A stretch of 30,190 nucleotides of DNA from a bacterium. Lineage in GTDB: Bacteria > SAR324 > NAC60-12. The stretch is from positions 1 to 30,190 of the forward strand of contig CBDDTI010000315.1 of NCBI GenBank assembly GCA_965233585.1, given 5' to 3'. The notes beneath the pieces are model-generated. The model worked only from the letters and a program-made list of their open reading frames with translations. It was not told the DNA's origin and ran no database searches. The position numbers were made by a program, and so were the translations under genes. This document shows, piece after piece, positions 1 to 30,190 of this stretch (position 1 is its first letter; the number at the start of each line of letters is the position of its first letter).

Positions 1-1339
1 GTAGACGCAAACAATAAATACATGAATGAAGATTATGATAAATCCAAACCTTCATCATACATAAGTTATTTAGATGCTAATAACCTTTACGGATTAGCAA
101 TATGTAAGAAACTGCCATATGGTGATTTTAAATGGTATTACGGCAGAATGGATGAGAAGAGGGTAATGAAATATAGTGATGATGATGACATAGGATACAT
201 ATTAGAAGTTGATTTAGATTACCCAAAAGAACTACATGATTTACATAAAGACTATCCATTAGCACCTGAAATCATGTGTATCAATGAGAGTATGCTTTCA
301 CAAGTCCAAAAGGATATACACAAATACTATTACGGAAAGGATGCCAGTGATGAAAAGGCAAATAAATTAGTATTAAATGTTATGGGTAAAAAGAAGTATG
401 TTTTACATATATCAGCATTGAAGTTCTATTTACAACATGGATTACGTCTTAGAAAAGTCCATAGAGCGATGAGTTTTAAAGCAAGCAAATTTCTTAAAAC
501 CATTCATTGAATTCAACACCGAAAAGAGAAAGAATGCCAAAAATGATTTTGAAAAAGATTTGTTTAAGCTAATGAACAACAGTGTATATGGCAAGACCAT
601 GGAGAATGTAAGAAAGCATGGTGATTATGAGATAGTCAATACGCCTGAACGCTTCCAAAAACTGGTAAATAAACCGCTATTCAAGCACATGTATATCATA
701 AATGAAGGCCTTGTAATTGTTGAAAAAGATAAACACACAGTGGAACTAAACAAACCTATCTACATGGGTATGTCTATTTTAGACTATTCTAAAATTCACA
801 TGTATTCGTTTTACTATGATGTTTTGAAACCAAAATATCAAGATAATATCAAGTTGGTATATACTGATACTGATAGTTATGTAATAAAAGTTGAGACTGA
901 TGACTTATATGAAGACTTTAAGGAGATTAATGAATACATGGATTTTAGTGATTATCCACCAGAGCATCCAAACTATGATAAAACAAATAAGAAGGTATTA
1001 GGCAAGTTCAAGGATGAAATGAACAGTAAAATAATTACTCACTTTATAGGATTGAAACCAAAGGCATATTGCTATAAAGTATATGGTGATGATAAAGAAC
1101 ATAAGAAGAGTAAAGGAGTAGTAAAGCATAAAGTGAGTAATCAGTTAAGTTATAAAACTTATGAAGAGACATTGAATAGAAACTGTAAAGAAGAAGTCAG
1201 TTTTAACACTATCAGAAGCAAGAACCATCAAATCTATAGCATTAATCAGACTAAGTATGCTTTGAGCCACTACGATAATAAACGCTACTGGTTTTCAGAT
1301 TTTGAAAGTCTCCCGTTTGGACATTATGCCATAAAATAG
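1..1339 (+). pseudogene. polB: Protein-primed family B DNA polymerase, C-terminal polymerase domain, one frameshift near 480
   Basis: Motif A YLDANNLYG, motif B KLMNNSVYGKT, motif C YTDTDS, plus GKFKDE and KPKAY. ORFs 22-510 and 560-1339 join if the extra A in TTTTAAAGCAAG is removed (arm B reads TTTTAAGCAAG). Confidence 0.93.
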
Positions 1340-1384
1340 CTACACAACGAAAAGATGGTTTAAGATGTATGGATATAAAAAAGA

Positions 1385-2007
1385 TGTAAACAGATATGAA
1401 ACGGACAAATCCATAAGATAGTTTATTGGTTAAAATAGTTGCTACATCGGTTCAACAACTGAAAAACTGAGTCAAAGAATGGCAAGACATAGAAGAGATT
1501 ATGAATCTTATCTATATACACAATACAAATCCCCAAAAACACCATATTAACTCTATGAAATCGTTTGATGAGTTCGGTGTTGAAAACTGTAAAATGGTTC
1601 TTATGGAAGAACGCCCATGCCAAAACAGAAAGCAACTCAAAAACAGAGAAGGTGAATATATTGAAAATGATAAGAGCCGTCTTAGCGGATGTTTTGTTGG
1701 TCGGACTTGAATGGAATATTACGATGCCACAGGAGAGCATCACCTTGAAGAAACGAAAGGACGCCACGTATTCAAATAGAGAATATTGAAAAATACAAAG
1801 AAAAAGACAAACAGCATCATGAGAACAAAAAACAAAATATAAGAACACTAGAAAAATAAAGATAGATATAATGAGAAGAATTTAAGTATAGAGAAGAAAA
1901 CAGAGAAGCAATGAGGCAAACACAAAGAAAAAGATACCAAAGGGAGAAAAATAGAAGTAATGCCCAAAACAAGAGAAAGGCCAAAACAGAAGAAAGAAGA
2001 ACAGTTA
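1385..2007 (+). pseudogene. GIY-YIG endonuclease remnant (viral type) with Lys/Glu-rich tail
   Basis: Manual translation from 1440 gives CYIGSTTEKLSQRMARHRRDY. After a frameshift it continues SFDEFGVENCKMVLMEERPCQNRKQLKNREGEYIEN...GRT*. Several stops and frameshifts; ends are approximate. Confidence 0.8.
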
Positions 2008-2944
2008 CTAATCAACCAATAGTAATTCATGCCTATTATATCTTTTACTCATTCCATCCAATTTATAATATCTATTATTCATCATATCACGACCAACTAA
2101 TATCAATTTGTATTTCCTTTCACTCCATTGACTTCTAGTTTCTTTCCTTGATACATAGTTGCCCTTTCCTTTATCAAATATCTTAACATAATCTCCTTCA
2201 CTTATGTTTGGATATTTTCTCTTGTGCTTTTCTTTCAGTATCAGATTTGTTCTGACCTGAATTACGTTATCAAGATTGTGCGCATTATTAGGTGTTGTCT
2301 TGGTGCTACCGTGGATTTGGTTGTTGTATCTATTCAACGAGGGCTTTAGCACTTCCACCCATGTTTTGGTTTTGTAATGCCTCAATCTGTCCCCAATCAT
2401 TTTTTTGACCGTGCGTATCATCCTTTCTGCCTGATTTGCATGCGTCTTTGTTATTACGTGTGTTATACCTTCCTCCTTAAAGAATGTTTTCAGTTTCTTG
2501 CTGTTCAACGCTCCTTCGTCGTCGCTGTAAATCGACAAAGGCTGGCCTAATACCTTGAAACACTCCATGACTGCTTTATAAACGTCATCACCATCTTTAT
2601 TCTCGGTAGGGACTATGTGACATTTTTTGCTGAATATATCTATGCAAGCCAAACCATATCTTAGTTGACTTTTGATTTCAGAACCTACGTCTCGCAGCAA
2701 ACTGGTGACATCCATCAAGTCAATTTGGAATTCATACTTGGGAAACGGTGCAGTGTAGGAATTGTAGTTCTTGTAGTTTCTTGTTTGCTTGTTCGGTTGC
2801 GCCCTCATCCATGCAGATACCATATCCAAAGTTATGCCCACATCGACTTTCCTCGCCTTTTCGTATAAGTCCCTCACCGAACCGAAGCCCTCCTCCACGT
2901 CGTAATATTTTTTCCAATACCTTTTCTTTTTCCAATCTTGTCAT
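2008..2944 (-). CDS. int: Retroviral-type (rve/c-integrase) DDE integrase of Polinton type; likely ATG at 2944 is separated from the 2008-2898 ORF by an A-run frameshift
   Basis: DDE triad context FQIDL / YSDDEG / AERMIRT, also IDIFSK, YNNQIHGSTKTTP and C-terminal GDYVKI...WSE...Y.L...EL. MTRLEKEKVLEK joins YYDVEEGFGS with a 1-nt correction. Confidence 0.92.
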
Positions 2945-2958
2945 TAGAAATACTTAGA

Positions 2959-2998
2959 TTATAATTTTATGATGTTTTCTTGCATCATAAAATCATAA
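2959..2998. terminator. 16-bp stem / 8-nt loop hairpin just downstream of the Zn-finger ORF (arm A copy)
   Basis: TTATAATTTTATGATG-ttttcttg-CATCATAAAATCATAA with one mismatch. A 3'-end signal role is inference. Confidence 0.5.
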
Positions 2999-3009
2999 CG
3001 AACTTACAC

Positions 3010-3357
3010 TCAGCACCTTTGGCACTTTTTGGTTTTCTTGTGCTTTGCCAAGTTTGATTTACAACTTAAGTCAGAACCGCATATATCGCATACGCACGGT
3101 TGTTTCGTTTTCTCTTGGTAATATCTTTGGAAATACGTTTCGTCGTTCGGTTTTCTGTTGTAGTATCCGTCGTCCTGCTTTCTCCATTCAGCATTTCTAG
3201 CCTTTTCACCAAATGAACCTGTTTTATCACCTTCTTCAGACGAAGAAGACGTTTCGCTGTCAGTCAGTTCTTTGTTTCCAAAACCGTTCCAAATAACGTC
3301 GAAGGTTTGATTAGTCGTTGACATTTCAACTCCGTTGCTTACAAAGTAACAAGGCAT
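3010..3357 (-). CDS. Small protein with C-terminal zinc finger (115 aa)
   Basis: ATG-initiated ORF ending CVCDICGSDLSCKSNLAKHKKTKKC; conserved in arm B. Confidence 0.75.
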   Translation of the reverse strand: MPCYFVSNGVEMSTTNQTFDVIWNGFGNKELTDSETSSSSEEGDKTGSFGEKARNAEWRKQDDGYYNRKPNDETYFQRYYQEKTKQPCVCDICGSDLSCKSNLAKHKKTKKCQRC

Positions 3358-3654
3358 ACTGCAAATATAGTTAACTATATATCTAAATATTTGTTTAAGT
3401 ATTTTTCATCAGAAACATTAGATTTGTCCTGATGTCATCTCTGCGTGCCTTTTCGCGCAAGACTTTAATTAACAGAACAAGACCCAATTTTCAACATCAA
3501 AGTTTATAGGTTTGAGCAGTTTACCTTTCCAACTTCCCACCGGTTGACTTATTTTTAGAGACGCCCCGTCCTAAAACCTCAAAAATCCAAACCCAAACAT
3601 GCTTTGCGTTCAAAACAGTGAGACTTGAGCTTTGTCCCAAGCCAATCCAAAAAC

Positions 3655-3990
3655 CAAGCCAATTTCCCCGCAAATCGAAACCGTTTTTCCCAAAAAACGG
3701 AGCCTGTTCTTCCCAAAAACGGAGCATGTTTTTTCCCAAAAAAGGAACATGTTTTTCCCAAAAACGGAGCTTGTTCGTCCCCAAAACGGAGCATGTTTTT
3801 CCCAAAAACGGAGCATGTTTTTCCCAAAAACGGAGCCTGTTTTTCCCAAAAAAGGCACATGTTTTTCCCCAAAATCGGTGACGCATTTCCCCAAAATTGG
3901 AACGGATTTCCCCAAAATCGGTGACAGATTTCCCCAAAGTCGGTGACGGATTCGGTGACAGATTTCCTCAAAGTCAGTGGCTGATTTCCT
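3655..3990. repeat. ~22-bp tandem array, about 14 degenerate units of two subtypes
   Basis: Units CCCAAAAACGGAGCATGTTTTT (CGGA at ~3698, 3720, 3765, 3787, 3809, 3831) grade into CCCCAAAATCGGTGACAGATTT. Confidence 0.9.
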
Positions 3991-4421
3991 GAGAGCCCAG
4001 CCTCGTTAGCCGGAACCCCAACTCCCAAAGCCAAAAAATACCAAACGCATTTTTAAGTATGTACATACTTGCTCAAAACACAAAAACAATGAGGGATTTC
4101 CAGCCCGCAACCACTCATGGAGCTTGCAGGAAAACGCAAACGAGGGTGAACCTGTGGATTTCTTGCGTCAGCACGTTGAAATGTATTTGCAAACATGGCA
4201 TGCTTCCATGCGCGTCTGGGTTTGATGTTTAGTTTCAAGCTTTCGGCTCAGCGTTTGCAGATGAATTCCGGGGCAACAGCCCCTTCCGTGCAGCTCAGTC
4301 TTAGAAGGCTCAATTCAGAACGCATCGAACAAACAGTGTTGGGTAGCCAGAACAAAGAACTATTCCAGAACGGGTCGAAACTCAGTTTTGATTGCTTGAT
4401 TGCGACCCTTTTTTCAGTGCA

Positions 4422-6220
4422 ATGGCTTCCAAGAGAAGCGCTTCAGCTTCTTGTCTGCGTCTTGCTGCAATTAGTTGTTTTTTGGTCGGCGCCTTCCAAA
4501 ATTTGACCTTCAGCATCCCAAAGCAGATAGAGGAAAGCGCCCAAAACAAAGGCATCAGTCCCGCCCAATACCTGAAAGATGTGAGCAACAGAGCAGAGCT
4601 TTACCAAAAGAGCAACGCGGTTGCTGGGCGAGAGGAGTTTGTGAAGACATTGAATGAGGCAGTGCGGTTGAGCTATCCGTTGTTTCTCATGAACTTGTTT
4701 TAATTCTGTTTGGAGTTTAGAGGTTCAGTATGGTTAAGGAAGTTTATGCGGTTATTAGACGGTTTTTCCTGTCCATTTTTGAAAAGACTTCAGCTCAGCT
4801 AAATTGTGATACAGTTCAAGATGTCACGCAACTTCGTCAGGCTATGGGAAAGTCTGGTTTGCACCTTGTCATTGGGGGCAAGTCCCTCGGAGAGACCAAA
4901 ATTGTGCAGACCGTTGTTGACAATGCTGGCGATGAAGCTCCTTTGCTCTACGTCAATATGCGTCTCCCTAGCAAAGCCCAGTCAACGGATGCATTGGAAT
5001 GTTTGCAAGAAGAAGCTAAGCGAAGATGGACCGCAAAGAATTTGCCATTCGGGGCAGAGCGGCTGGTTGCCGCCGGTTCTGCGGTTCTTGGAGCACTTGG
5101 CAAAGCGAACTTAAAGAAGAGTGACGATGAGGAGATAGGAGAGGGTGCAGTGGAAACTCTTCTCTCTTTGTTTCTCAACATCACCAAGCCCGAGGAGTTC
5201 ATCAAGGCTTTTGTTGCGGCAACAATGGCTGCAGAGACGGTTCCAGTCATGATTGTTGATGAAGCCAACATCGCCTTTCCCAATGGTAACGGTGGGAATG
5301 GGAATGGCAGAAGAGAAGCAGCTTACAGAGCGCTCGCAACCTTTGTGGCGCTGACAAAGGAGCAGGGGAAAGCGTCTATTATTCTGGTTGCCTCTGACTA
5401 TGATTTCCCATTGGGACTACAAGCTCTTGGCTTCAACAAGTATGATGCCCTCAATACGATTGTAGCTCCGGAGGCTGAAGAGAAGCCTATGCTTTCTTTG
5501 CTGCAAGAGTGGGGTTTGTCTCAAGACTTGGCACAGGAGCTATGAGCAACTTTGCGCAGTGCTTTTCTAAAGCTTGCTTTTGTTAGCTCATGCTCGTGTA
5601 AAACAGGGTCGAATTTTGGTGTTCTTTGTTTTGTTGAATTTCTTGTAATCAGTTTATCACGGGATGCATGGGTCGGAACTGTTTGCGTGCAATACCATGT
5701 GAAATCGGAATATGGCAAATGCTTTTGTGTTGTGGGCTGGCAGGAGTTCTATGAGACCTTCGGTGGAAACGTTTTTTTGTGCCACCAGGCGGTCGACAAG
5801 CTCCGTGAGCAATTCGAGTTGGGTCAGGAGAGGCTCTTCGACCCCTTCAACGTCCGAGGCAATGCCGGCTTAGATGACCTCGTTGGTGACCCGCTCACTC
5901 GGAAGCACATGGAGAACTTGGCTCAGAAAGGATGGTCGCAAGTAGAGGGTGGCGCTGCAGAAGCGGAGACGGAGAGCCAGAAGGGTGCTCGCATCATCGC
6001 CAAGAAGAACTTCGGCGCCATCATCGAGAGACAGACCACTACTTTCTTTGACCAAGCCTTGAAGGAAGATATGTTCAGAGACCCAGATGCTGTGCGGGTT
6101 TTAATTCCACCAACTACATATGCACGCAAGTGCATCCAGCGGATGGTGGACACGGTGAAACCAAGCAACTTGGACTTCAAAGAAAGACTTTTCTTTTGGA
6201 GCAACCTCTCGTCACTATGA
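4422..6220 (+). CDS. Spliced P-loop NTPase (archaeal-ATPase/STAND-like) gene; exons 4422-4658, 4841-5536, 5744-6220; Walker A K->E
   Basis: In-frame joins give GREEFVKTLNE|AMGKSGLHLVIGGKSLGETK, Walker B VMIVDEAN, and QDLAQ|EFYETFGGN. Intron 1 is GC-AG (4659-4840) and intron 2 is GA-AG (5537-5743). The N-terminus is hydrophobic and the ATG follows TTTTTTCAG. The 3' end is uncertain. Confidence 0.75.
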
Positions 6221-6624
6221 GCCCCATTCATTTTGCAGTTTGTTTCTCAATCTTTCAGGAGCATTTATCGGATACGCGAACCATTTTTTCTCCATCCGTT
6301 CTCGGTTGAACATGTTGAACGTAAGGCATCACCAGACCACAAGCTGGAGCAGTGTGGGTGAGGCAACTAAAGGCGGACAGGAGTGACCGGTGCCAGTCAG
6401 TTGCTTCACCAAGGAAGCACTATTGTATTGGGTTCTACGATAAATTTAAACAATCATGTCTATGCCAACTCAGCAGCAAACTGCATGGATTGATGGTGGT
6501 AATGCAACTTTCCTCCCAAGCCAAACATGTGATTATGTGTAAGCCCGCTATGCAAAATAATACTGTGTCATTTTATGTTCTTGAGACAGCTCAGCACTAT
6601 TTGGGGAGAAGATTGCAGGGTTGT

Positions 6625-7880
6625 TCATTCCTCAGGATTTGTTTAAACATATGTTCCAATAATCTTCCTGCGATTGATAGAGAGGATTTAGACTGAAGAC
6701 TTTGTATGTTTTTCTGCCACGCCCTTGTTCCTTTGCTGTGCCCTTTTGTCAGGTGTAGGAAGAACTTTTATTATCGAAAAGCCATGCCCCAAACTAAAAG
6801 CGTGATTAAGGGTAAGTCCACTGTGCAAGAAAATACACTGTCATGCTACGAACTTGGTAGGGTGCAGGGCGTCTTAAGGGAGAAGATAATGGGTTTTTTC
6901 CTTCAGGATTTGTTGAATGATATCTTCCCAACATTTGCCTTAAATTGGTAGAGAGGATAGACTAAAGACGTTTGTGCGATTTTCTGCCATGCCCTTGTTC
7001 CTTTGCCGTGCCCTTTTGTCTGTTCCCACCTCAACATCTCACCTTTTGAATGATACAGCAAGTGTTGAACAAGCAGCCTTGTCATTCCTATATGTTCCTC
7101 TCATGTGTTGCTTTGAATGGTTCGTGTGCCAAAAACGGTGTTGATTGGTCGTGTGGATGAAAGTAGGCTTGAGCTCCATCAATTCTCCCACTCAAGCGTC
7201 AAAAGCATTGTTATTTACAAGAGCCACTGCAACAGTTGATGCCATTGTTCCCTTCAAAGTTCCTCTGACTAGTGTTAGGTTAAATACAAGTGATTTGTTC
7301 AGTCGACGCTTCAAGAGATTTCCCACTGCCATGTTGCCATGTTGCCAAATGTTTTGCAAGGTGCGTTGCGTTGCTTGTCATGCGCGTTAAGTGTTTGCTA
7401 TGTGTTTTTTTGAGCACGGCCGGACATTGGTTGAAAGGGTGGCGCTGGAATCAAGATATCTTTCAAACGTTTCCCTCAATTTGATAGAGAGGATTTCGAC
7501 GAAAGACTTGGCATGTTTTCTGGAATGCCACTGTTTCTTTCCCATGTTCATTTTGACTCTTCCTACTCAACACCTCATCTTTTGAGAAACACTGCAAGTG
7601 TTGAACGAGCGGCTTTGTCGTCCCTATGTGTTCCTTTCATGTGTTCCTTTTTGTGGTTCTTGTGCTAAAAGCCGGTGTTAATTGGTCATGTTAACACAGG
7701 TAGGGTTGTGTTCCATCATTTCTCCTAGTCGAGCATCAAAGGCTTTGTAATTTGCAAAAGTCAATGGAACAGTTTATGCCTTTGTCCCTTTTCGTTTTGA
7801 CTAGTGTTAGGTTAAGATTTAAGTGGTTTGTTCAGCCAAAACTTTATCAAGAGATTTCCTTCAGCCATGCGTTCATGTCT
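6625..7880. repeat. Diverged direct repeats: ~6915-7345 is similar to ~7455-7875, with a shorter third copy at ~6630-6752
   Basis: Shared TTG(A/G)TAGAGAGGAT at 6674, 6945 and 7481. GACTAGTGTTAGGTTAA is exact at 7267 and 7799. GCCCTTGTTCCTTTGC-GTGCCCTTTTGTC occurs at 6721 and 6991. Confidence 0.8.
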
Positions 7881-9499
7881 TCCTCGCCAGTCAAGAGATT
7901 GGTTGCGGGCAAGCGGCTTGTGCAACACGGGTTTGGGTTTGAATGTCTTGGCTGTTGACCTTGCAGGACGGCAAAGGTGGCTTCGAGTTCGTTGGCAATG
8001 GATTTCAAGTCAAGGATAAGGACGCTAGAAAAGTGATGCGAAATGCCAGCAGTTTCAACTCACCTAAGTTTGATTCGCTTTTGTCAGTTTTTTCTTTTCA
8101 GGACATCCAGAATATGGATGACTTGAAAAAAGTGTAGACCTCAAGCGAAATTTTGTTTGTCTCTTGTTCTGGGAACATTTTTCAGAAGAGACGTGACAAA
8201 GATTGAGCAGAGCAAACATTTTTGCAATCTGTGCTGTGAGTTCATGGTTTGCATTCATGTCAAAAACTGTGCCGTAACGTTCAAACTTGGTGCATTGACT
8301 AAACCAATTTAGCGTTTGGTTTCCGGCAATGCGTGAGGCTTAGTGAGCGTTGAGACGACAAAGTCGACAGTGAAAATCAGAGCATGTTTGTCTTTGAAAG
8401 AGTGTAAAAGTGGGTCGTTTTTCTGTGAGGCGATTGAGAAGGAGATGAAATTGTCAATCGCAGCTCCCTTGATTGACATCTACAGCCTGAAGGACAGCTT
8501 CGCTATTTTCTTCCACCATCCACCGCACTATCTAACCTGACCTTTCGAAACAGTGCTTCAAGTTGTCGTTTGAGTATTGTGATATGCCAGTTTGCTCATC
8601 GTGGATTTGCAGGGTGGAAGTTGGACGCGGGAAGATGAAGAAGCACCAGTCAATCGTGGCAAGTCCAAGCCCATCACTTGGTGTTTCGTTTTGAGCAGCT
8701 TTTGCAATGCTTCGGTTCAGATTGATGTCATTGTTTACAACTTTCTGATGTATTTTTGTTGCCGCCTCTGAGCATTCAGGACAGACTGCTATGGTTTCAC
8801 GATACCATCAGCGTGAGTGTGTGTCTCAGCTTTCTCAGCAACCTGCTGTAGCTTGACGGTAATGGAGTTCCGTGGTCACCGCAACAAATTTGGCTCTCAT
8901 GAGGGTCTGTTTGTTGCTCTGTCGGCTGAGGCTGTCGAAATCCAATGAGAGCACGCATGTGAGCGTGTATGTAGTCTATTAATGTTTCACTTCGTATCAC
9001 AGAATCAGCACAGTTGGTTCGTTGTGGTATGACCTTGCGTCAATGATAGAGTATGCGTTGCAGTTGGACAATTCCAACTTGGACTGAAGGGTTGACTTTT
9101 CCTGACAAACAGGTCATGCATGCAACGGGTGCAGGAGCAATGACCCAAGAGCTGGTCATAGCATGTTTCATTCAGGCGTTGCACATAGCGCCCAAGCACA
9201 GACCAAGCAACATACAGTTTCCTAAAAAAAGACTTGCGCTTAATTTTGGACAGGCTTTCCTGGGAGTCGGAGCTTTGAATGGACAACTAGAAGAAAATTT
9301 AAGGAAAATCGGTGGAAAACTAGTGGACAAAGTTTTGGCAACTAAGGGTGCCTTTTCAACATGCTAAACTCCTTGTAGTCACGAAAAGCATGCCACCGAC
9401 TTATATGAGACGGCGTAAAGATATTATACACAAAACCCCCATCGGGCAAAAAGTACTTAAACAAATATTAAGATATATAACTGACTATATATACACAGT

Positions 9500-9867
9500 A
9501 TGCCTTGTTACTTTGTAAGCAACGGTTTGTAAGCAACGGAGTTGAAATGTCAATGACTAATCAATCCTTTGACTTTATTTGGAACGGTTTCGGAAACAAA
9601 GAACTGACTGACAGCGAAACGTCTTCTTCGTCTGAAGAAGGTGATAAAACAGGTTCTTTTGGTGAAAAGGCTAGAAATCCTGAATGGAGAAAGCAGGACG
9701 ACGGATACTACAACAGAAAACCGAATGACGAAACGTATTTCCAAAGATATTACCAAGAGAAAACGAAACAACCGTGCGTATGCGATATATGCGGTTCTGA
9801 CTTAAGTTGTAAATCAAACTTGGCAAAGCACAAGAAAACCAAAAAGTGCCAAAGGTGCTTAGTGTAA
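9500..9867 (+). pseudogene. Zn-finger ORF, arm B copy, frameshifted by a 14-bp tandem duplication
   Basis: ATG at 9500 (MPCYFVSNG), then TTTGTAAGCAACGG twice; the remainder matches 3010-3357. Confidence 0.8.
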
Positions 9868-9872
9868 GTTCG

Positions 9873-9912
9873 TTATGATTTTATGATGCAAGAAAACATC
9901 ATAAAATTATAA
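9873..9912. terminator. 16-bp stem hairpin between Zn-finger stop and integrase start (arm B copy)
   Basis: TTATGATTTTATGATG-caagaaaa-CATCATAAAATTATAA, beginning 6 nt after the stop at 9867. Confidence 0.5.
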
Positions 9913-9926
9913 TCTAAGTATTTCTA

Positions 9927-10864
9927 ATGACAAGATTGGAAAAAGAAAAGGTATTGGAAAAAAATATTACGACGTGGAGGAGGGCTTCGGTTCGGTGAGG
10001 GACTTATACGAAAAGGCGAGGAAAGTCGATGTGGGCATAACTTTGGATATGGTATCTGCATGGATGAGGGCGCAACCGAACAAGCAAACAAGAAACTACA
10101 AGAACTACAATTCCTACACTGCACCGTTTCCCAAGTATGAATTCCAAATTGACTTGATGGATGTCACCAGTTTGCTGCGAGACGTAGGTTCTGAAATCAA
10201 AAGTCAACTAAGATATGGTTTGGCTTGCATAGATATATTCAGTAAAAAATGTCACATAGTCCCTACCGAGAATAAAGATGGTGATGACGTTTATAAAGCA
10301 GTCATGGAGTGTTTCAAGGTATTAGGCCAGCCTTTGTCGATTTACAGCGACGACAAAGGAGCGTTGAACAGCAAGAAACTGCAAACATTCTTTAAGGAGG
10401 AAGGTATAACACACGTAATAACAAAGACGCATGCAAATCAGGCAGAAAGGATGATACGCACGGTCAAAAAAATGATTGGGGACAGATTGAGGCATTACAA
10501 AACCAAAACATGGGTGGAAGTGCTAAAGCCCTCGTTGAATAGATACAACAACCAAATCCACGGTAGCACCAAGACAACACCTAATAATGCGCACAATCTT
10601 GATAACGTAATTCAGGTCAGAACAAATCTGATACTGAAAGAAAAGCACAACAGAAAATATCCAAACATAAGTGAAGGAGATTATGTTAAGATATTTGATA
10701 AAGGAAAGGGCAACTATGTATCAAGGAAAGAAACTAGAAGTCAATGGAGTGAAAGGAAATACAAATTGATATTAGTTGGTCGTGATATGATGAATAATAG
10801 ATATTATAAATTGGATGGAATGAGTAAAAGATATAATAGGCATGAATTACTATTGGTTGATTAG
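9927..10864 (+). CDS. int: DDE integrase, arm B copy (main ORF 9974-10864; ATG 9927 is out of frame at an A-run)
   Basis: Same motifs as arm A. Three amino-acid differences over 296 aa (SDDEG/SDDKG, KLKT/KLQT, KHKR/KHNR). Confidence 0.92.
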
Positions 10865-11495
10865 TAACTGTTCTTCTTTCTTCTGTTTTGGCCTTTCTCT
10901 TGTTTTGGGCATTAATTCTATTTTTCTCTCTTTGGTATCTTTTTCTTTGTGTTTGCCTCATTGCTTCTCTGTTTTCTTCTCTATACTTAAATTCTTCTCA
11001 TTATATCTATCTTTATTTTTCTAGCGTTCTTATATTTTGTTTTTTGTTCTCATGATGCTGTTTGTCTTTTTCTTTGTATTTTTCAATATTCTACAATTTG
11101 AATATTTGGCGTCCTTTCGTTTCTTCAAGGTGATGCTCTCCTGTGGCATCGTAATATTCCATTCAAGTCCGACCAACAAAACATCCGCTAAGACGGCTCT
11201 TATCATTTTCAATATATTCACCTTCTCTGTTTTTGAGTTGCTTTCTGTTTTGGCATGGGCGTTCTTCCATAAGAACCATTTTACAGTTTTCAACACCGAA
11301 CTCATCAAACGATTTCATAGAGTTAATATGGTGTTTTTGGGGATTTGTATTGTGTATATAGATAAGATTCATAATCTCTTCTATGTCTTGCCATTCTTTG
11401 ACTCAGTTTTTCAGTTGTTGAACCGATGTAGCAACTATTTTAACCAACATAAACTATCTTATGGATTTGTCCGTTTCATATCTGTTTACACCTTT
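10865..11495 (-). pseudogene. GIY-YIG endonuclease remnant, arm B copy
   Basis: The reverse strand reads GQIHKIVYVG*NSCYIGSTTEKLSQRMARH..., and the 11163-11372 fragment is identical to arm A 1501-1710. Confidence 0.8.
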
Positions 11496-11536
11496 TTTTA
11501 TATCCATACATCTTAAACCATCTTTTCGTTGTGTAG

Positions 11537-14500
11537 CTATTTTATGGCATAATGTCCAAACGGGAGACTTTCAAAATCTGAAAACCAGTAGCGTTTATTA
11601 TCGTAGTTGCTTAAAGCATACTTAGTCTGATTAATGCTATAGATTTGATGGTTCTTGCTTCTGATAGTGTTAAAACTGACTTCTTCTTTACAGTTTCTAT
11701 TCAATGTCTCTTCATAAGTTTTATAACTTAACTGATTACTCACTTTATGCTTTACTACTCCTTTACTCTTCTTATGTTCTTTATCATCACCATATACTTT
11801 ATAGCAATATGCCTTTGGTTTCAATCCTATAAAGTGAGTAATTATTTTACCGTTCATTTCATCCTTGAACTTGCCTAATACCTTCTTATTTGTTTTATCA
11901 TAGTTTGGATGCTCTGGTAGATAATCACTAAAATCCATGTATTCATTAATCTCCTTAAAGTCTTCATATAAGTCATCAGTCTCAACTTTTATTACCTAAC
12001 TATCAGTATCAGTATATACCAACTTGATATTATCTTGATATTTTGGTTTCAAAACATCATAGTAAAACGAATACATGTGAATTTTAGAATAGTCTAAAAT
12101 AGACATACCCATGTAGATAGGTTTGTTTAGTTCCACTGTGTGTTTATCTTTTTCAACAATTACAAGGCCTTCATTTATGATATACCTGTGCTTGAATAGC
12201 GGTTTATTTACCAGTTTTTGGAAGCGTTCAGGCGTATTGACTATCTCATAATCACCATGCTTTCTTACATTCTCCATGGTCTTGCCATATACACTGTTGT
12301 TCATTAGCTTAAACAAATCTTTTTCAAAATCATTTTTGGCATTCTTTCTCTTTTCGGTGTTGAATTCAACGAATGGTTTTAAGAAATTTGCTTGCTTAAA
12401 ACTCATTGCTCTATGGACTTTTCTAAGACGTAATCCATTTTGCAAATAGAACTTCAATGCTGATACATGTAAAACATACTTCTTTTTATCCATAACATTT
12501 AATACTAATTTATTTGCCTTTTCATCACTGGCATCCTTTCCGTAATAGTATTTGTGTATATCCTTTGGACTTGTGAAAGCATACTCTCATTGATACACAT
12601 GATTTCAGGTGCTAATGGATAGCCTTTATGTAAATCATGTAGTTCTTTTGGGTAATCTAAATCAACTTCTAATATGTATCCTATGTCATCATCATCACTA
12701 TATTTCATTACCCTCTTCTCATCCATTCTGCCGTAATACCATTTAAAATCACCATATGGCAGTTTCTTACACATTGCTAATCCGTAAAGGTTATTAGCAT
12801 CTAAATAGCTTATGTATGATGAAGGTTTGGATTTATCATAATCTTCATTCATGTATTTATTGTTTGCTTCTACTTTCTTAAAGGAGCACTGCGTCATTCC
12901 TCCTCTTAATCCATGTTCAATCATCTCATACATTTCTTTTATGTGTACTTGTTGTAGTCTAACTCCTGTCAATGATAAAAACGCATTCCAAGAATAGTTA
13001 GGTAAAGTGATATAATATGCTGGGTCTAAACCATAATAGTTTAAGCACATGTCCCTAAAATTTTCAAATACATCGGTTAGTAAATATACATCAGTCATCA
13101 AATATAAATCATGATATTCACCAAGGTTTTTAATGTTAAAATGTTTCCATACAATATTTGCTCTGGCGTAGTCTTTGTCAGTTATGTTTTCTTCATATAA
13201 TTGACTGTAAAAGTCTTCTTTCTTTGGTAGTTTTGTTTCATCAAATTTATCCCATGAATTCATATAGTCGTATGGATAGACACCCTTATCAGTCAGTAAA
13301 TTCAAATCAGTTTTAGATTTAATGTATGGGTTGGTGCTTGTATATCTGAAACGAGTTTCCCAATCTTTAATCTTTTCGTTTCCCTCATATTTGTTTAATC
13401 TAACTAGTTTATCCAATGACGCAGTTAAGAAAGCAAAACTATCTTTAAACTGACAGGCACCAAATGAAAAGGTTATGAACTTTTCGCTGTTGTGTGCTAT
13501 TACCTCTATTCTTTTGTTTTGGTTTAGTTCTATGTTTAGTTCATTTGCTCTGGCAATGATTAAGTGAGCGTCATAGTTTTTAAGATTATGAAAGAAGATA
13601 GGGATCTTAAAATATCTAAATGAATAATCCAGATTACATTTTACATGCGCTGCGCCTCTGTATTTGCCTGTGAAGTGGCAGTGGTCGCGGACTTTCTCAT
13701 CATCAGGTTCAAATTTCTTACCGCAGATGGAACAATGAGACGATAATTTAAACTCTAATTTTTGTTCGTTTGTTAATTCATCCATTGGTTTATTAACATT
13801 CATTTTTTCAAAAATATCTTTCTTAATTTCGGTCAGTTGTTCTACAAACTGTTTCATACAATCCTCACCTCTGTATAAATACGGTTTGCAAGTATTATCA
13901 ATCCTGCTTACAACATTCAACATATAACCGCAAGGTTTATGTTCTTGGTAAGTTCCTCTGGGAGCACTGCTTCCAGAGCAACTTAGGGCACCTTCGGTGC
14001 CGTAAGTTCCCTTTATTTCAGTATTAGAGTTAGTGGTTAGACATTCAGAATCACCATAGATTACAAAAGGACAAGGCAATTTAGTATTATGCTTTTCAAA
14101 TTCTATATACGTGTCTTTATTTGGCATCTTTGTTTGTTGTCCTTCTGATGCCATACATCCTTTTCAAGCTGGTTCTTATATGCCTTTTCTGATTGAAATG
14201 GATTTAAGCAATGGTGACAGTAGTGTTTTTGCTTTGTATTAGTGTTGCTTTGACAGTTAAGTAATCTACTTTTTTTAAAACTAAAACATAGTGATAATTA
14301 TTGTCTTCATCATAGACCTTTAATAAATCAATCTCATATTTGGCATTTGTATTTTTAGTGCCTCTATGTAATATGATTTTATTATCATTCAAGCAGTCAT
14401 CAGGTTCAAAAACATTTATTGACACTAATTTATTGTTCTCTTCAAATCTGTCTATGTCCCTATTACCAGTCGGAAAATTTACACCATCCCAGTTCAAAAT

Positions 14501-15350
14501 ATCATCTTTTAGTTTATTGTAGTGGAACATTTCTTCTGGGTGATGTTTGCTTATTTTGTCATAGACTACCGATTGAATACAATATCTAAAACATTTTTGG
14601 TCTTTGTTTTTAATGTTGATACATGCCTTTTTTAATTTAATCCATTCTGCTAGTTCTATGTATCTCCCTGCCCTTGTTGGGTCATATCTGTCATAATGAA
14701 TGGTTATTGACAAAATCTTTTTGAAGTGTAAATTAGATGCTGATGCTTCTAAATTTTGTATTTGTAATAAGATTTGTATAAACTGTCTTCTAATGCTTGT
14801 GTCAGTTCATCCTCATTACTGATATTGAAGCGGGTTGAAGGTAAAGCATATACAAGTTCTTGACTGCCGATGTCATTTCCTCCATCATCATATTCAGGTT
14901 TTTCAAAGAGTGCTTCTGTTCTTATGTTAAGTTTCACGCTTCTATTCTTTCTAAAAATTCTACTAGTCTTGGTTTTTGGTGTGCAATCATGTCCAGTCCT
15001 CTTTCTCCTTCAAAGTGTCTATTTTCTAAAACTATTGAATTAGCATATCTTCTGAATGCTGATTGAATATCTCTGACCCTAAATTTGTTTCTGATTGCGT
15101 GTTTGGTCAGTATTTGTCTCACTCTTCCTTCACTGAACGAATCTTTTGCCTTGTTTAAAGCATAACTTCTGTATTCATTAGTTTTCTTTACTGTTAATAG
15201 TTTCTTTGTTAAAACAGTAGATATTGGTTTGTCTTTGTTGTATCTAAATCTTTTATCATCTATTATTCTTGACTTTAATTCTCTCCTTCCTCGTTTTGGT
15301 ATTTCTGCTAAATCATTACTTAGTAGATAGTCTATAACTTTTTTCATCAT
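11537..15350 (-). pseudogene. polB: Full-length protein-primed PolB (~1270 codons) in six ORF fragments: N-terminal extension, OTU-like region, Zn finger, exonuclease with EndoVII-like Zn insert, polymerase
   Basis: YIELAEWIKLKKACINIKNKDQKCF...HYVLV; Exo I VIYGDSE; CSICG...VRDHCHFTGKYRGAAHVKCNL; Exo II FHNLKNYDAH; Exo III YLMTDV; motifs A, B and C. About five frameshifts plus a TAG right after YTDTDS (11996-11998). Confidence 0.93.
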
Positions 15351-15475
15351 ATAATAGTATATATTTTATCTAGTTAATTTATCTTTAAGTAGGTTTTTAA
15401 AGAATGATATATTTTAATCTGAGAATATTTGCGGAAAGAATAGTTATTTAAGTATATATTATTAGGATGAATTTT

Positions 15476-16064
15476 ATGAAGGATTTGCCTGTTGATGTAC
15501 TGAGTAATATTGTATCATATACTCATGGAGATCCTGAATATGTGAAAATGAAATATAGACATAGTGAAGCATTGGAAGAGTAGAGGATACATATAGAGTA
15601 TCAAAACTTGGTCCGAAAAAGGACAGAACGATAAGACAAAGAGACAAGATGTATATAGAGTATTGTATTTTGAGAAAGGGAGTACCATTTAGTTTGAAAA
15701 GTATAAGAAACATCATAACAGAAGAAAGAAAGAATTACTATTTTTAATTTATGAAGAAGTAGAAGATGATTTAGATTATAGAGTTAAACTTGATATTGAG
15801 GTTCAATTAGTGGCAAAACTCCCAGAAAAGGAATATGGAGAAAATGAATTTAGTTATACAGAGATTTATTTTATGAATGGCTTTGATGAATATTTAGATG
15901 AAGATAGTATAGATACAATATTAGAGAAAGCAGTTGAAGAAATACAGGAAGATATAGATGAAGACCGACATAAAGATAGTATCATAGGAATACAAGCATT
16001 TCATTTTAAATTAATAATTATTGAAGACATTTACTACTATTTGATTTATGAATTATTAAGATAG
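15476..16064 (+). pseudogene. Decayed acidic-protein gene divergent from polB, starting with an F-box-like motif
   Basis: ATG 15476 gives MKDLPVDVLSNIVSYTHGDPEY...EE*. The downstream fragment 15810-16064 is Glu/Asp-rich. Joining the two is inferred. Confidence 0.45.
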
Positions 16065-16244
16065 GATTATTAAAGGTGAGGAAATTGTCTTTATTATGGT
16101 TTGTTGTTTTGTTTTTTTATTTTGATGTTTTTTTTGTTTTTGTTTTGGGTATGGAATGGATGAGGTCATGATGTGATTTTCTATGCACGAAAAATATCAA
16201 AAAAATCTGAAAACAGATTTAAGAAAATGACTGTTTTAAGATAT

Positions 16245-16559
16245 ATGGATGATAAAACCTGTAAAACTTGTGAAAGAACTATGGACATTGATAATTTTGA
16301 TGAAGGGTTAAAAACTTGTAAAATGTGCTTGTCAGATAAAAGAACCAGTTATCACAAACATAAACATAAACGAAATGAGGTTCAAAGAAAAAGATATGAA
16401 GAAGATGAGGAATATAGAAAAATGAAGCAGGACTATAATAACACATTTCAATCTAAAATTGTTAGTTGTTCTGTTTGTAATTGTTCAATGACCCAAGCAA
16501 ATTACTATAAGCATAAGAAAACAGAGAAGCATCAAAGAAACTTAAATAATAGTCAGTAG
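16245..16559 (+). CDS. Small double zinc-binding protein (CxxC...CxxC plus C2H2-type finger), 104 aa
   Basis: MDDKTCKTCE...TCKMCL...VSCSVCNCSMTQANYYKHKKTEKH; in-frame ATG at 16245. Confidence 0.75.
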   Translation: MDDKTCKTCERTMDIDNFDEGLKTCKMCLSDKRTSYHKHKHKRNEVQRKRYEEDEEYRKMKQDYNNTFQSKIVSCSVCNCSMTQANYYKHKKTEKHQRNLNNSQ

Positions 16560-16704
16560 TTAGGTTTCAATAAAATGAATGAGGTAATTAGGTATTGACT
16601 TTTATGATTTATAGAAATGAAAGAGGTAATACATGGTTAGTAGTGATGATTTTGAAAAAATGAATGAGGTAATTATGCCTTGACTGTTTTTATTTTCATT
16701 ACAG

Positions 16705-16747
16705 TTTTAATATTGTTGAACAAATGAAGTAATCAACAATATTAAAA
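16705..16747. other. Perfect 15-bp inverted repeat with 13-nt loop near the outer end of arm B
   Basis: TTTTAATATTGTTGA ... TCAACAATATTAAAA. Confidence 0.85.
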
Positions 16748-16815
16748 ATCTGTGTTTAGACGGTTATAATTGAAATTAAAAACTTCTATGAACTGTGGTT
16801 TTTTACATTTTTTCT

Positions 16816-16915
16816 CCAACCCCACCCCAAACCCGTAAGCCATCCTTGGTTTGCCCGTGTGAGCGAACGTTAACATCCCAACCCCACCCCACCCCAACCC
16901 CACCCCAACCCCGTG
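16816..16915. repeat. (CCCCA/CCCCAA)n low-complexity repeat
   Basis: Repeated CCCCACCCCAACCCC runs directly after the AT-rich arm. Confidence 0.8.
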
Positions 16916-17457
16916 GGCCTAAAAGGTAGAACCATTGCTAAATGTAAGACAATTGTATTGTAAGTTGGCTCATAGTATCGTTTTATGGACTGCTTTGCAC
17001 GTAATCAGCTTGTAATTCATAGGGTTTCACAGAAATTTCGGCGCAACTGATCGGCAAAAAAGTAGGGCCACAGTTTCGTCGCAAGTGATCGGCGAAATTT
17101 CGTCGTAAGATGTCGTAAGTGAATGGCAGACCAGTTCAACCCAAACAATTGCAAGGAGAGAACATAAAGTGATAATGGGTGATTATCATGTTGAGTAGAA
17201 AGGTGATGGGAGTAATCGGGGGGTACATGCAATATCATGCAATCATTTCGGGGGATGTATGAGAGATACCAGAATTATACATAATTACATAAATCAGATA
17301 TAATTTATGATATAATCATATAATTATATGTTTGTATAAATATAAATATATACGGTATACACACTATGTTTATTGGATTTATCCAAGAATTGGGGCATGT
17401 AGCTCAAAAAAGTTCGGTTTTTCAATGGGGGTCCCACGTCTGTTCTACATCGCCAAG

Positions 17458-20400
17458 GAAGAAGCGATACACCGTCGCCCAGTACGCCGCTGTTGGCCTA
17501 CTTACCGCTGGTGCCTACCACTGGGGCTGCCTGACATTTCCTGTCAGCCGTTGAGATGAACAGTGATGAACAGTGACTAATAGATATATCCACTTGTTTA
17601 TAACAGTGACTAACGGTTCACTATTAATGTGTTTATAATAGTGATATATCCACTATTAGTCCTGTTTATATTGAGATGACTAATAGTGGATACAATATAT
17701 CCACTGGTTTTTATAAGATTTGCGCAAGGTTCTGTTGCTGCTCACTTGCTGATGTTTGAAAGGATATTTGTGGAGTGTAGCTGGCTCATTCCAGGAATGC
17801 TTTAGCGGATCCCAAGCTTTAGCGGCACTTCTCCTTGTTATTTTCTCTAACTTGTGGGGTAATTCTTATCCCTTTGCCCCTTCGATGAATTTATTTTGTG
17901 AGCTTTGCTCATTGGCTCATTCACCCGCCTTAGCTTCAAATCATTCCCCTTTGCACATGCATTTCCTTGTTTCTCATTGGGGATGGATCCAGCACCTAGA
18001 CCATATTTTCCCGAGAGCGTCTGAGCGCAGGGTTCTTCCAATAGTGGGGGTCTGTATCTCATCTTCTCATCTTCACACCTTCTCATCTTCACACCTTCTC
18101 TCACACCTTCTCATCTTCACATCTGCTCATCTTCACATCTGCTCATCTTCAAATCTGCTCATCTTCACATCTGCTCATCTTCACATCTGCTCATCTTCAC
18201 ATCTTCACATACTCACATCACCTTCTCATCTTCACATCTGCTCATCTTCACACCTTTTCATCTTCACATCTGCTCATCTTCACATCTGCTCATCTTCACA
18301 TCTGCTCATCTTCACATCTTCTCATCTTCACATCTGCTCATCTTCACATCTGCTCATCTTCACATCTGCTCATCTTCACATCTTCACATACTCACATCTT
18401 CACTTTCTCTCTCTCGCACTCACATCTTCACATACTCACATCTTCTCTCTCTCCCTCTCTCTATCTCTCTCTCTCTCTCCCTCCTCTTTCCTCTCTCCTT
18501 TCTCTCCCTCTCTCCTTTCTCTCCTTTTTCTCTCTCTCGCCTTCTTTATCTTTCTCTCTTTAGGCCGAGGGTGGTGCCGGCGGGGAGTCACGAAACGTCA
18601 ACCCTTTCGCACGAAATGAGGGTCGATCGTCAAAAACTGAGGAAAAATTGCGATTTTACTTGTGCCGGAGCAACCCTTTCGCACGAAATGAGGGTCGATG
18701 CGCAAAAACTGAGGAAAAATTGCGATTTTACTTGTCCCCGAGCAACCCTTTTGCACGAAATGATGGTCGATGCGCAAAAACTGAGGAAAAATTGCGATTT
18801 TACTTGTGCCGGAGCAACTCTTTCGCACGAAATGAGGGTCGGTGCGCAAAAACTGAGGAAAAATTGCGATTTTACTTGTCCTGGAGCAACCCTTTCGCAC
18901 GAAATGAGGGTCGATGCGCAAAAACTGAGGAAAAATTGCGATTTTACTTGTGCCGGAGCAACCCTTTCGCACGAAATGAGGGTCGATGCGCAAAAACTGA
19001 GGAAAAATTGCGATTTTACTTGTCCTGGAGCAACCCTTTCGCACGAAATGAGGGTCGATGCGCAAAAACTGAGGAAAAATTGCGATTTTACTTGTGCCGG
19101 AGCAACTCTTTCGCACGAAATGAGGGTCGATGCGCAAAAACTGAGGAAAAATTGCGATTTTACTTGTCCTGGAGCAACCCTTTCGCACGAAATGAGGGTC
19201 GATGCGCAAAAACTGAGGAAAAATTGCGATTTTACTTGTCCTGGAGCAACCCTTTCACACGAAATGAGGGTCGATCCGCAAAAACTGAGGAAAAATTGCG
19301 ATTTTACTTGTGTCGGAGCAACCCTTTCGCACGAAATGAAGGTCAATGCGCAAAAACTGAGGAAAAATTGCGATTTTACTTGTCCTGGAGCAACCGTTTC
19401 GCACGAAATGATGGTCGATGCGCAAAAACTGAGGAAAAATTGCGATTTTACTTGTCCCCGAGCAACCCTTTTGCACGAAATGAGGGTCGATGCGCAAAAA
19501 CTGAGGAAAAATTGCGATTTTACTTGTGCCGGAGCAACCCTTTCGCACGAAATGAGGGTCGGTGCGCAAAAACTGAGGAAAAATTGCGATTTTACTTGTC
19601 CTGGAGCAACCCTTTCGCACGCAATGAGGGTCGATGCGCAAAAACTGAGGAAAAATTGCGATTTTACTTGTCCTGGAGCAACCCTTTCGCACGAAATGAG
19701 GGTCGATGCGCAAAAACTGAGGAAAAATTGCGATTTTACTTGTGCCGGAGCAACTCTTTCGCACGAAATGAGGGTCGATGCGCAAAAACTGAGGAAAAAT
19801 TGCGATTTTACTTGTCCTGGAGCAACCCTTTCGCACGAAATGAGGGTCGATGCGCAAAAACTGAGGAAAAATTGCGATTTTACTTGTCCTGGAGCAACCC
19901 TTTCACACGAAATGAGGGTCGATCCGCAAAAACTGAGGAAAAATTGCGATTTTACTTGTGTCGGAGCAACCCTTTCGCACGAAATGAAGGTCAATGCGCA
20001 AAAACTGAGGAAAAATTGCGATTTTACTTGTCCTGGAGCAACCGTTTCGCACGAAATGATGGTCGATGCGCAAAAACTGAGGAAAAATTGCGATTTTACT
20101 TGTGCCGGAGCAACCCTTTTGCACGAAATGAGGGTCGATGCGCAAAAACTGAGGAAAAATTGCGATTTTACTTGTGCCGGAGCAACCCTTTCGCACGAAA
20201 TGAGGGTCGGTGCGCAAAAACTGAGGAAAAATTGCGATTTTACTTGTCCTGGAGCAACCCTTTCACACGAAATGAGGGTCGATCCGCAAAAACTGAGGAA
20301 AAATTGCGATTTTACTTGTGCCGGACTTGTCTGTGTGTAAAAGCGTCTGTGTGTAAGAGTCTCTGTGTGTAAAAGTGTTTGTGTGTAAAAGTGTTTGTGT

Positions 20401-30119: not shown

Positions 30120-30190
30120 GCCCTTTGGCTCGAATGGCAAGGAGATTTACCGGTCCCCAGAGGTGGAATCTCTAATGGGAGAATGAGGGG

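Follow-up and report, generated by a model that had tools for sequence, protein, structure and literature searches.

An inverted pair of capsid-less Polinton-like units around host-like DNA in a sequence of Symbiodiniaceae affinity

We analysed a 30,190-bp stretch of DNA (contig CBDDTI010000315.1 of GenBank assembly GCA_965233585.1, positions 1 to 30,190, hereafter the window), in which two copies of an AT-rich unit face each other in opposite orientation around a unique segment of about 6 kb. The unit encodes a family B DNA polymerase of the protein-primed type (pPolB; gene polB) and an rve-family integrase. The arrangement probably arose through two insertions of one capsid-less, Polinton/Maverick-derived family, in inverted orientation, around host DNA. 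A preliminary description of the locus had instead proposed a single mirror-image element of ~20.7 kb with cargo, listing two independent insertions as an alternative; the alternative is the better reading.

A blastn alignment of the window with itself paired positions 9448-12873 with positions 3406-1. The alignment has 3,428 columns, of which 98.075% are identical, and includes 42 mismatches and 10 gap openings; a repeat search of the window recovered the same inverted repeat as a set of pieces (I1-I6, I8 and I11). The repeat is real and far beyond chance. We refer to its left copy as arm A (1-3406, minus strand; 98.1% reverse-complement match to 9448-12873) and to the full unit on the right as arm B (9448-16813, plus strand). 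The window begins inside arm A, a partial copy of the unit that is visible over 3.4 kb only. A global alignment of the two arms contained 43 substitutions and eight indel events up to position 3406, beyond which the sequences are unrelated. The homology ends within ~3 nt of 3406 and 9448, which places the end of arm A at 3406 and not at 3416 as first described. This boundary coincides with a jump in guanine-cytosine (GC) content from 32-34% in the arms (34% in arm A and 32.0% in the unit at 9448-16813) to 45% in the core between them (45.4%); the right flank (21900-30190) has 43.9%. The coincidence of the homology end with the compositional jump indicates that the inner ends are termini of the element and not arbitrary duplication breakpoints.

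The differences between the arms are unevenly spread: substitutions amount to 0.95% over positions 1-3279 (31 in 3,279 nt) and to 9.4% in the 127 nt closest to the inner ends. This inner-end stretch (3280-3406 in arm A and 9448-9591 in arm B) contains 12 substitutions, a 14-nt tandem duplication and a 2-nt indel, corresponding to about ten times the divergence of the rest. Had a single copy been duplicated locally and recently, such a jump from 0.95% to 9.4% would not be expected. Variability of the termini could account for the raised divergence, as could the end of a gene-conversion tract or the instability of TA-rich sequence.

Arm B contains the full unit, which spans 7,366 bp, is AT-rich and comprises, from its inner end outward, a first Zn-finger open reading frame (ORF), the rve integrase, a probable remnant of a GIY-YIG endonuclease, polB, an AT-rich spacer, a second Zn-finger ORF and a set of 43-bp repeats. 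Its outer end at about 16813 was set by a change in composition and the end of a T run, not by comparison with a second copy; beyond the T run a C-rich, (CCCCA)n-like tract takes over. The contigs of two diverged polB relatives (67% and 56% identity) measure 7,354 and 7,368 bp, close to the size of the unit. This agreement supports the outer boundary, but a solitary unit and collapsed arms would look alike by this measure. The visible part of arm A, in which tblastn with P0002 and P0255 (relatives of polB and the integrase, see below) found matches, carries the 3' part of polB (1-1360, plus strand), the GIY-YIG remnant (about 1400-1710, plus strand), the integrase body (2901-2026, minus strand) and Zn-finger ORF 1 (3357-3010, minus strand).

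The polB gene of arm B (11516-15350, minus strand) corresponds to 1,262 codons with an HNH/EndoVII insert; its reading frame changes five times and is also interrupted by an in-frame stop (at 11996). An intact relative of 1,262 aa (P0002) maps along its whole length with tblastn, in six pieces that fall in frames -3, -2, -1, -3, -2 and -1 and show 70-92% identity; an ORF of 549 aa from the gene is 90% identical to it. The region 11996-12493 matched PF03175 (DNA_pol_B_2; E=5.8e-8, 32.5 bits, above the cut-off of 25.8), and PF02945 (Endonuclease_7; E=1.8e-5, above the cut-off) was found in the polB fragments. An alignment of 20 relatives shows no variation at the residues that we take to be the exonuclease (Exo I-III) and polymerase (Pol A-C) motifs, nor at the Cys, His and Asn residues of the nuclease insert. 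At E<=0.001, PF03175 was detected in one of these 20 full-length relatives and Endonuclease_7 in 16. The PF03175 match, the mapping of P0002 and the motif residues together identify a pPolB of the Polinton kind, in a gene that is broken in both arms.

The AlphaFold model of the 549-aa ORF had a mean pLDDT of 68.3, and a fold search with it against the PDB returned no match at E<=0.001. Above that threshold, nearly all of the best matches were family B polymerases, including those of herpes simplex virus 1 (E=0.011) and phi29 (E=0.023, probability 0.87), and the best small match, which covered the insert, was a beta-beta-alpha-Me nuclease. By sequence, neither P0002 nor the 20-sequence profile found a polymerase in the PDB, the profile matching only a C2H2 finger at positions 348-387, and P0002 had no polymerase relatives in the phage collection.

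Arm B polB also carries an 18-codon insertion, a GC-rich in-frame stretch of 54 bp (13948-14001, minus strand) that lies between 9-bp direct repeats GGAACTTAC and is not found in P0002. It starts with a short hairpin. Judged from its sequence, the stretch resembles the mark left by a very small inserted sequence that duplicated 9 bp of its target.

The integrase gene (9926-10864, plus strand) matched PF00665 with E=2.5e-8 (34.5 bits, above the cut-off of 32.6) and is 96% identical to a 313-aa relative (P0255). Its catalytic body is open in both arms and amounts to 271 aa from an ATG at 10049. In both arms the start codon and first 12 codons lie in another frame than this body (9926-9975 in arm B and 2895-2949 in arm A), with one further base in arm B. 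An rve integrase as expected of a Polinton is present, its 5' end being out of frame in each arm. Integrase relatives with PF00665 are typically ~313 aa long; a 271-aa form starting from the same internal ATG forms a cluster of 288 members (P0258), which indicates that the 5'-defective version is itself widespread. A sequence search of the PDB with the integrase returned no relatives.

The remaining genes of the unit are small or degraded. Three-frame translations of the GIY-YIG remnant (about 11166-11475, minus strand) revealed the same frame changes and stops in both arms. A 38-aa piece (11326-11439) matched PF01541 at E=0.0045 and 17.7 bits, below the cut-off of 22.6, and a second piece had no match. 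Accordingly, of the arm genes named in the preliminary description, the 3' third of polB, the rve integrase and the Zn finger stand, whereas the GIY-YIG gene is weakly supported. Zn-finger ORF 1 (9547-9867, plus strand; 106 aa) has a C2H2/C2HC-like C-terminus with a zf-C2H2_4 match of only E=0.05. ORF 2 (16227-16559, plus strand; 110 aa) matched phrog_2340, annotated as 'endonuclease', at E=4e-4. The two ORFs are alike at their C-termini (BLASTP, E=3e-4). For the small ORFs of the unit, no helpful match came from NCBIfam or PHROGs.

Outside polB and the integrase, the unit offers only ~2.6 kb, taken up by the two ORFs of ~110 aa, the GIY-YIG remnant and the AT-rich spacer. No Pfam or PHROGs match to a capsid protein, a packaging ATPase or a protease was found in it, so the Polinton morphogenesis module (double jelly-roll capsid protein, penton protein, packaging ATPase and maturation protease) is missing from the unit. 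The unit is Polinton-like and capsid-less, as had been proposed.

The ends of arm B carry no detectable terminal inverted repeat (TIR), again in agreement with the preliminary description. A local alignment of the two 400-nt ends scored 40, compared with a mean of 42.1 (standard deviation 6.9) for shuffled sequences, and no inverted ungapped match with at least 12 matching bases was found between 9380-9620 and 16560-17000. A direct repeat of the long-terminal-repeat type between the ends likewise scored 40, no better than shuffles. The TIRs of a Polinton are absent from the unit at 9448-16813; they would be present only if the whole arms were counted as repeats, which requires sequence beyond the window. 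The outer end does carry three subterminal direct repeats of 43 bp (16565-16696, plus strand), identified with Tandem Repeats Finder. The 43-bp motif matches three times, against 0.09 expected, with all matches at the outer end of the unit and none elsewhere. No tRNA genes or Rfam families were found in the window.

With polymerase and integrase in place and TIRs and the capsid module missing, the unit resembles a stripped-down Polinton and is not a canonical one.

The core (3407-9447) is a unique spacer of 6,041 bp with host-like composition, which shares no repeats with the arms or the right flank; the unique segment of ~6 kb described earlier is thereby borne out. On segments so short, host and element could not be told apart by their tetranucleotide signatures. 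The core contains an intron-bearing eukaryotic gene, as had been claimed: a spliced STAND/ATPase_2-like gene (4586-6487, plus strand) with exons at about 4586-5545, 5741-6199 and 6328-6487. The exons were delineated by tblastn with relatives (P0121, P0122, P0129 and others), an exhaustive profile search having found 134 relatives at E<=0.001. The first intron (about 5546-5740) reads GA...AG followed by G, which presumably fits dinoflagellate splice sites. Among 11 relatives scanned, which gave matches to ATPase_2, AAA_16 and AAA_22, ATPase_2 was found in seven, always below the cut-off, and a Crinkler domain scored above the cut-off in two.

The named relatives of the core gene all belong to Symbiodiniaceae: Cladocopium goreaui (91% and 87% identity), a record labelled Skav (84%), Symbiodinium microadriaticum (59%), Effrenium voratum (55%) and Symbiodinium sp. 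KB8 (47%). The host is therefore taken to be a Symbiodiniaceae dinoflagellate, the closest named relative of the core gene coming from C. goreaui. The core gene is co-directional with an RCC1-repeat gene in the right flank, an arrangement that we assume to be the usual, unidirectional one in such genomes. The encoded protein is an ATPase of the STAND/ATPase_2 type that forms a family in Symbiodiniaceae, and not a packaging ATPase. The core thus has the appearance of ordinary host DNA that includes a STAND-ATPase gene of the host, and not that of cargo. In the Walker A motif the lysine is replaced by glutamate (GGKSLGET, compared with GGKSLGKT in the 96%-identical P0121), and to judge from this residue the copy may be inactive. 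Downstream of the ATPase exons, the core also contains an internal duplication with ~76-80% identity (6919-7333 versus 7455-7869, and 6604-6750 versus 6878-7020).

Both arms have changed privately since they separated. Within the shared 1.3 kb of polB, arm A has a frameshift near 478 of its own, and arm B has a frameshift near 12567 and the stop at 11996. The 16 substitutions in this stretch comprise 12 nonsynonymous changes (one of them nonsense) and four synonymous ones; with six outgroup proteins as reference, arm A carries six of the derived states and arm B five to six. This is the pattern of neutral decay of polB in both arms, and would imply a common ancestor that was intact in the shared stretch.

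Furthermore, the family to which the unit belongs is very abundant. Among 8,000 scored candidates, 6,471 polB relatives were found at E<=0.001; the six best are 89-91% identical and 988-1,262 aa long, and the top cluster has 412 members. The integrase had 223 relatives at the same threshold among 560 candidates, with near-identical clusters of 650, 288 and 133 members. With families of such high copy number, neighbouring copies are to be expected. In four cases polB and integrase relatives list the same longest contig size (256641, 944695, 144280 and 23065), which points to conservation of the polB-integrase pairing in diverged lineages. In the atlas, look-alikes of polB were eukaryotic clusters combining PF03175 and PF02945, with Arthropoda as the commonest known phylum, and those of the integrase included clusters labelled Preplasmiviricota.

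Two insertions are favoured because the homology ends at the terminus of the element, the core is host-like, the family is high-copy and the arms decay independently. In the scenario we propose, two copies of an element family of ~7.4 kb would lie in opposite orientation ~6 kb apart in a Symbiodiniaceae nuclear genome. An active family would copy itself by its own polymerase and insert by its integrase, or would be served in trans by intact relatives. Both copies would have landed nearby in one burst and then decayed neutrally. The data show the repeat, the genes of the unit, their decay and the host character of the core; we infer that the insertions were independent, that mobilisation may have occurred in trans and that the pair would now do no more than provide a substrate by which the host segment could be inverted or gene-converted.

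Insertion by a Polinton may leave a target-site duplication, and excerpts of PMC10748475 describe Polintons being tested for duplications of 6 bp. A candidate was found around arm B, where the hexamer AACCCC occurs at 9434-9439 and again at 16818-16823 (both plus strand), the right copy opening the (CCCCA)n-like tract. Bracketing arm B alone, the hexamer fits a lone insertion of arm B into DNA continuous with the core. It occurs nine times on the plus strand of the window, and 2.1% of random pairs of host positions share a 6-mer within 14-nt windows (p ~0.02). No duplication directly abuts the boundaries 9448 and 16813. The C-rich tract (16818-16912) begins 5 nt beyond the outer end of arm B, and a single AAAACCCCCA lies just outside the inner end; C-rich motifs flank arm B on both sides. 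If the intervening DNA had been inverted, the duplication might be sought between the inner flank of arm A and the outer flank of arm B, and these shared no 4- to 7-mer in either orientation.

Several observations weigh against two insertions or are at least left unexplained by them. The AACCCC copies are offset by 8 and 4 nt from the boundaries as set, at a p of only ~0.02, and the 8 nt that they would add to the element are absent from arm A. Without a TIR, replication from both ends and integration of a lone unit are unexplained, and an inverted pair would solve this; at most an outward-reading TAC(A)T5-6, noted by eye only, is common to both ends of the unit. The frameshift at the 5' end of the integrase and the breaks in GIY-YIG are common to both arms, which indicates that their common source was already defective. 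Some of the frameshifts fall in homopolymer runs and could be assembly errors, of the kind against which a passage of PMC10120064 warns. The arms are ~1% apart, compared with 89-96% protein-level identity to database representatives, and such closeness at a spacing of 6 kb could also have come from a local event. The core ATPase, too, has numerous near-identical copies (clusters of 126, 48, 37, 18, 16 and 15), so copy number does not separate the core from the arms. Finally, the left edge of the core carries a tandem satellite of 22-bp and 34-bp units (3683-3986; Tandem Repeats Finder, family D10), 277 bp from the inner end of arm A, and a predicted 381-aa protein from another contig (P0256) has the translation of a similar satellite fused directly to the N-terminus of an integrase, on the same side and in the same orientation. 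The element family may be associated with the satellite, or the resemblance may be due to chance.

One unlikely alternative is a single insertion followed by a local inverted duplication 6 kb away through replication or repair, with or without gene conversion keeping the interiors alike. The proximity of two arms ~1% diverged and their common defects at the integrase 5' end and in GIY-YIG would fit such an event, and the gradient of divergence at the inner ends could mark the edge of a conversion tract. However, the duplication breakpoint would need to have fallen within ~3 nt of the element terminus, and the common defects are also explained by a widespread defective subfamily, such as the 288 members of P0258.

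The preliminary description had proposed a composite self-synthesising transposon, which we regard as improbable. In this view the inverted pair would be the mobile entity, so that the single unit needs no TIRs, the arms would provide identical outer termini on which protein-primed replication and the integrase could act, and the host segment would be captured cargo. Bacterial composite transposons such as Tn10 and Tn5 consist of two insertion sequences, each with its own inverted ends, and the composite moves as a whole. The locus resembles them in having two inverted copies of a mobile element around unrelated DNA, arm A being followed over 3.4 kb, and differs in that there is no sign of the whole moving and both arms are broken. 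In favour of the composite, the single unit lacks a TIR and the inverted arms are ~99% identical along most of their extent. Collapsed arms would also give rise to contigs of 7,354 and 7,368 bp, as listed for diverged relatives, and a satellite resembling that of the core edge lies upstream of the integrase at one other locus (P0256). Against it, the core is host-like in GC content and gene content, both arms have decayed with polB broken in each, AACCCC brackets arm B alone and divergence climbs to 9.4% at the inner ends. The longest contigs listed for the closest ATPase clusters also differ from those of the closest polB and integrase clusters, a weak test with one contig per cluster. The single ~20.7 kb element with cargo is disfavoured on these grounds, namely the host-like core, the private changes in both decaying arms and the hexamer flanking arm B alone. 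Beyond the missing TIR, the composite is not supported.

A related and distinctly improbable idea is that the form in which the family replicates and transposes is an inverted dimer, which would account for the lack of inverted termini in the single unit; head-to-head units would give identical outer ends for the integrase and for protein-primed replication and carry the enclosed DNA, here a captured host STAND-ATPase gene.

An assembly artefact, with a high-copy repeat leading the assembler to join non-adjacent sequences or to mis-extend an arm, is very improbable, even though high-copy Polinton-like elements are reported in parts of PMC10120064 and PMC12166617 to fragment protist assemblies and give spurious stops, the window begins inside arm A and five of the eight indels between the arms fall in short homopolymer runs: the 42 substitutions between the arms indicate two distinct copies, both inner junctions join the repeat to unique core sequence and a correct join through arm B is consistent with the C-rich motifs found on either side of it. 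The spacer of 6 kb also contrasts with the arrangement of fold-back read artefacts, for which a spacer of zero length is typical.

Two insertions of one family thus remain the reading we favour, and they can be set beside published elements. Endogenous Polinton-like elements with pPolB, rve integrase and GIY-YIG are described, in excerpts of PMC12166617 and PMC10120064, as high-copy in Symbiodinium and Polarella. These dinoflagellate elements measure 15-30 kb and carry capsid genes as well as, in many cases, TIRs. The excerpts add that loss of the morphogenesis genes is usual in endogenous copies or self-synthesising transposons. The unit shares with the 'eupolintoviral' dinoflagellate elements of these excerpts pPolB, rve integrase, a probable GIY-YIG gene, high copy number, a GC content unlike that of the host, and apparent stops and frameshifts. 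It differs from the full-length elements (15-30 kb, with capsid, packaging ATPase, further morphogenesis genes and often TIRs) in being 7.4 kb long and lacking those features. A passage of PMC11071213 reports Mavericks to be enriched at the boundaries of dinoTADs (dinoflagellate topologically associating domains) in Breviolum, which would favour clustering of copies.

At the eri-6/7 locus of Caenorhabditis elegans, several Polinton copies reshuffle and invert the locus, according to excerpts of PMC11414722. The likeness lies in Polinton copies around host genes, with repeats able to invert the intervening host DNA. However, the inversions there are shown by population data and the repeats derive from TIRs of 744 bp, whereas here no inversion is seen and the repeats are gene-bearing bodies of the element.

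Nuclease insertions in Polinton polymerases also have precedents. Parts of PMC10748475 describe an HNH endonuclease domain inside Polinton pPolB2 in oomycetes and nematodes, and homing-endonuclease inserts in polinton pPolBs appear in excerpts of PMC11161782. The Endonuclease_7 domain inside polB is similar to the nuclease-bearing pPolB2 of PMC10748475, as excerpted, in the insertion of a nuclease. The terms 'endonuclease VII', 'protein-primed' and 'Polinton' were not found together in the literature search. Titles and abstracts likewise yielded no description of a capsid-less polB-integrase unit, which could still be in print.

The sequence to the right of arm B carries features of its own. 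The RCC1-repeat gene (23723-25600, plus strand; RCC1_2, E=9.4e-12) contains eight copies of a 46-nt repeat at a spacing of ~123 nt. Three adjoining tandem arrays occupy 18069-21900, with units of 8 bp (18069-18457), 72 bp (18455-20410; ~24 copies at 93-97% identity) and 16 bp (from 20252; 82 register-shifted copies), and yield long spurious ORFs on both strands. Short palindromic repeats resembling miniature inverted-repeat transposable elements lie at 22969-23066, 23262-23366 and 29423-29506, with 88-93% arm complementarity and loops of 6 nt; they could be of the kind described for dinoflagellate introners in excerpts of PMC12166617.

On this reading the locus is what a Polinton-like family of high copy number ordinarily produces in a dinoflagellate genome, and its main value is as an annotated example. 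The family seems to exist as a compact unit of ~7.4 kb, with polB and integrase and without capsid genes or TIR, which raises the question of how such a unit replicates and inserts. If the composite transposon were true, it would reveal a novel route by which eukaryotic self-synthesising elements take up host genes; if the inverted dimer were, it would be a eukaryotic self-synthesising counterpart of the bacterial composite transposon. For the host, an inverted pair of at least 3.4 kb around one of its genes lends itself readily to inversion, gene conversion or the formation of hairpin RNA, and could matter for structural variation in Symbiodiniaceae.

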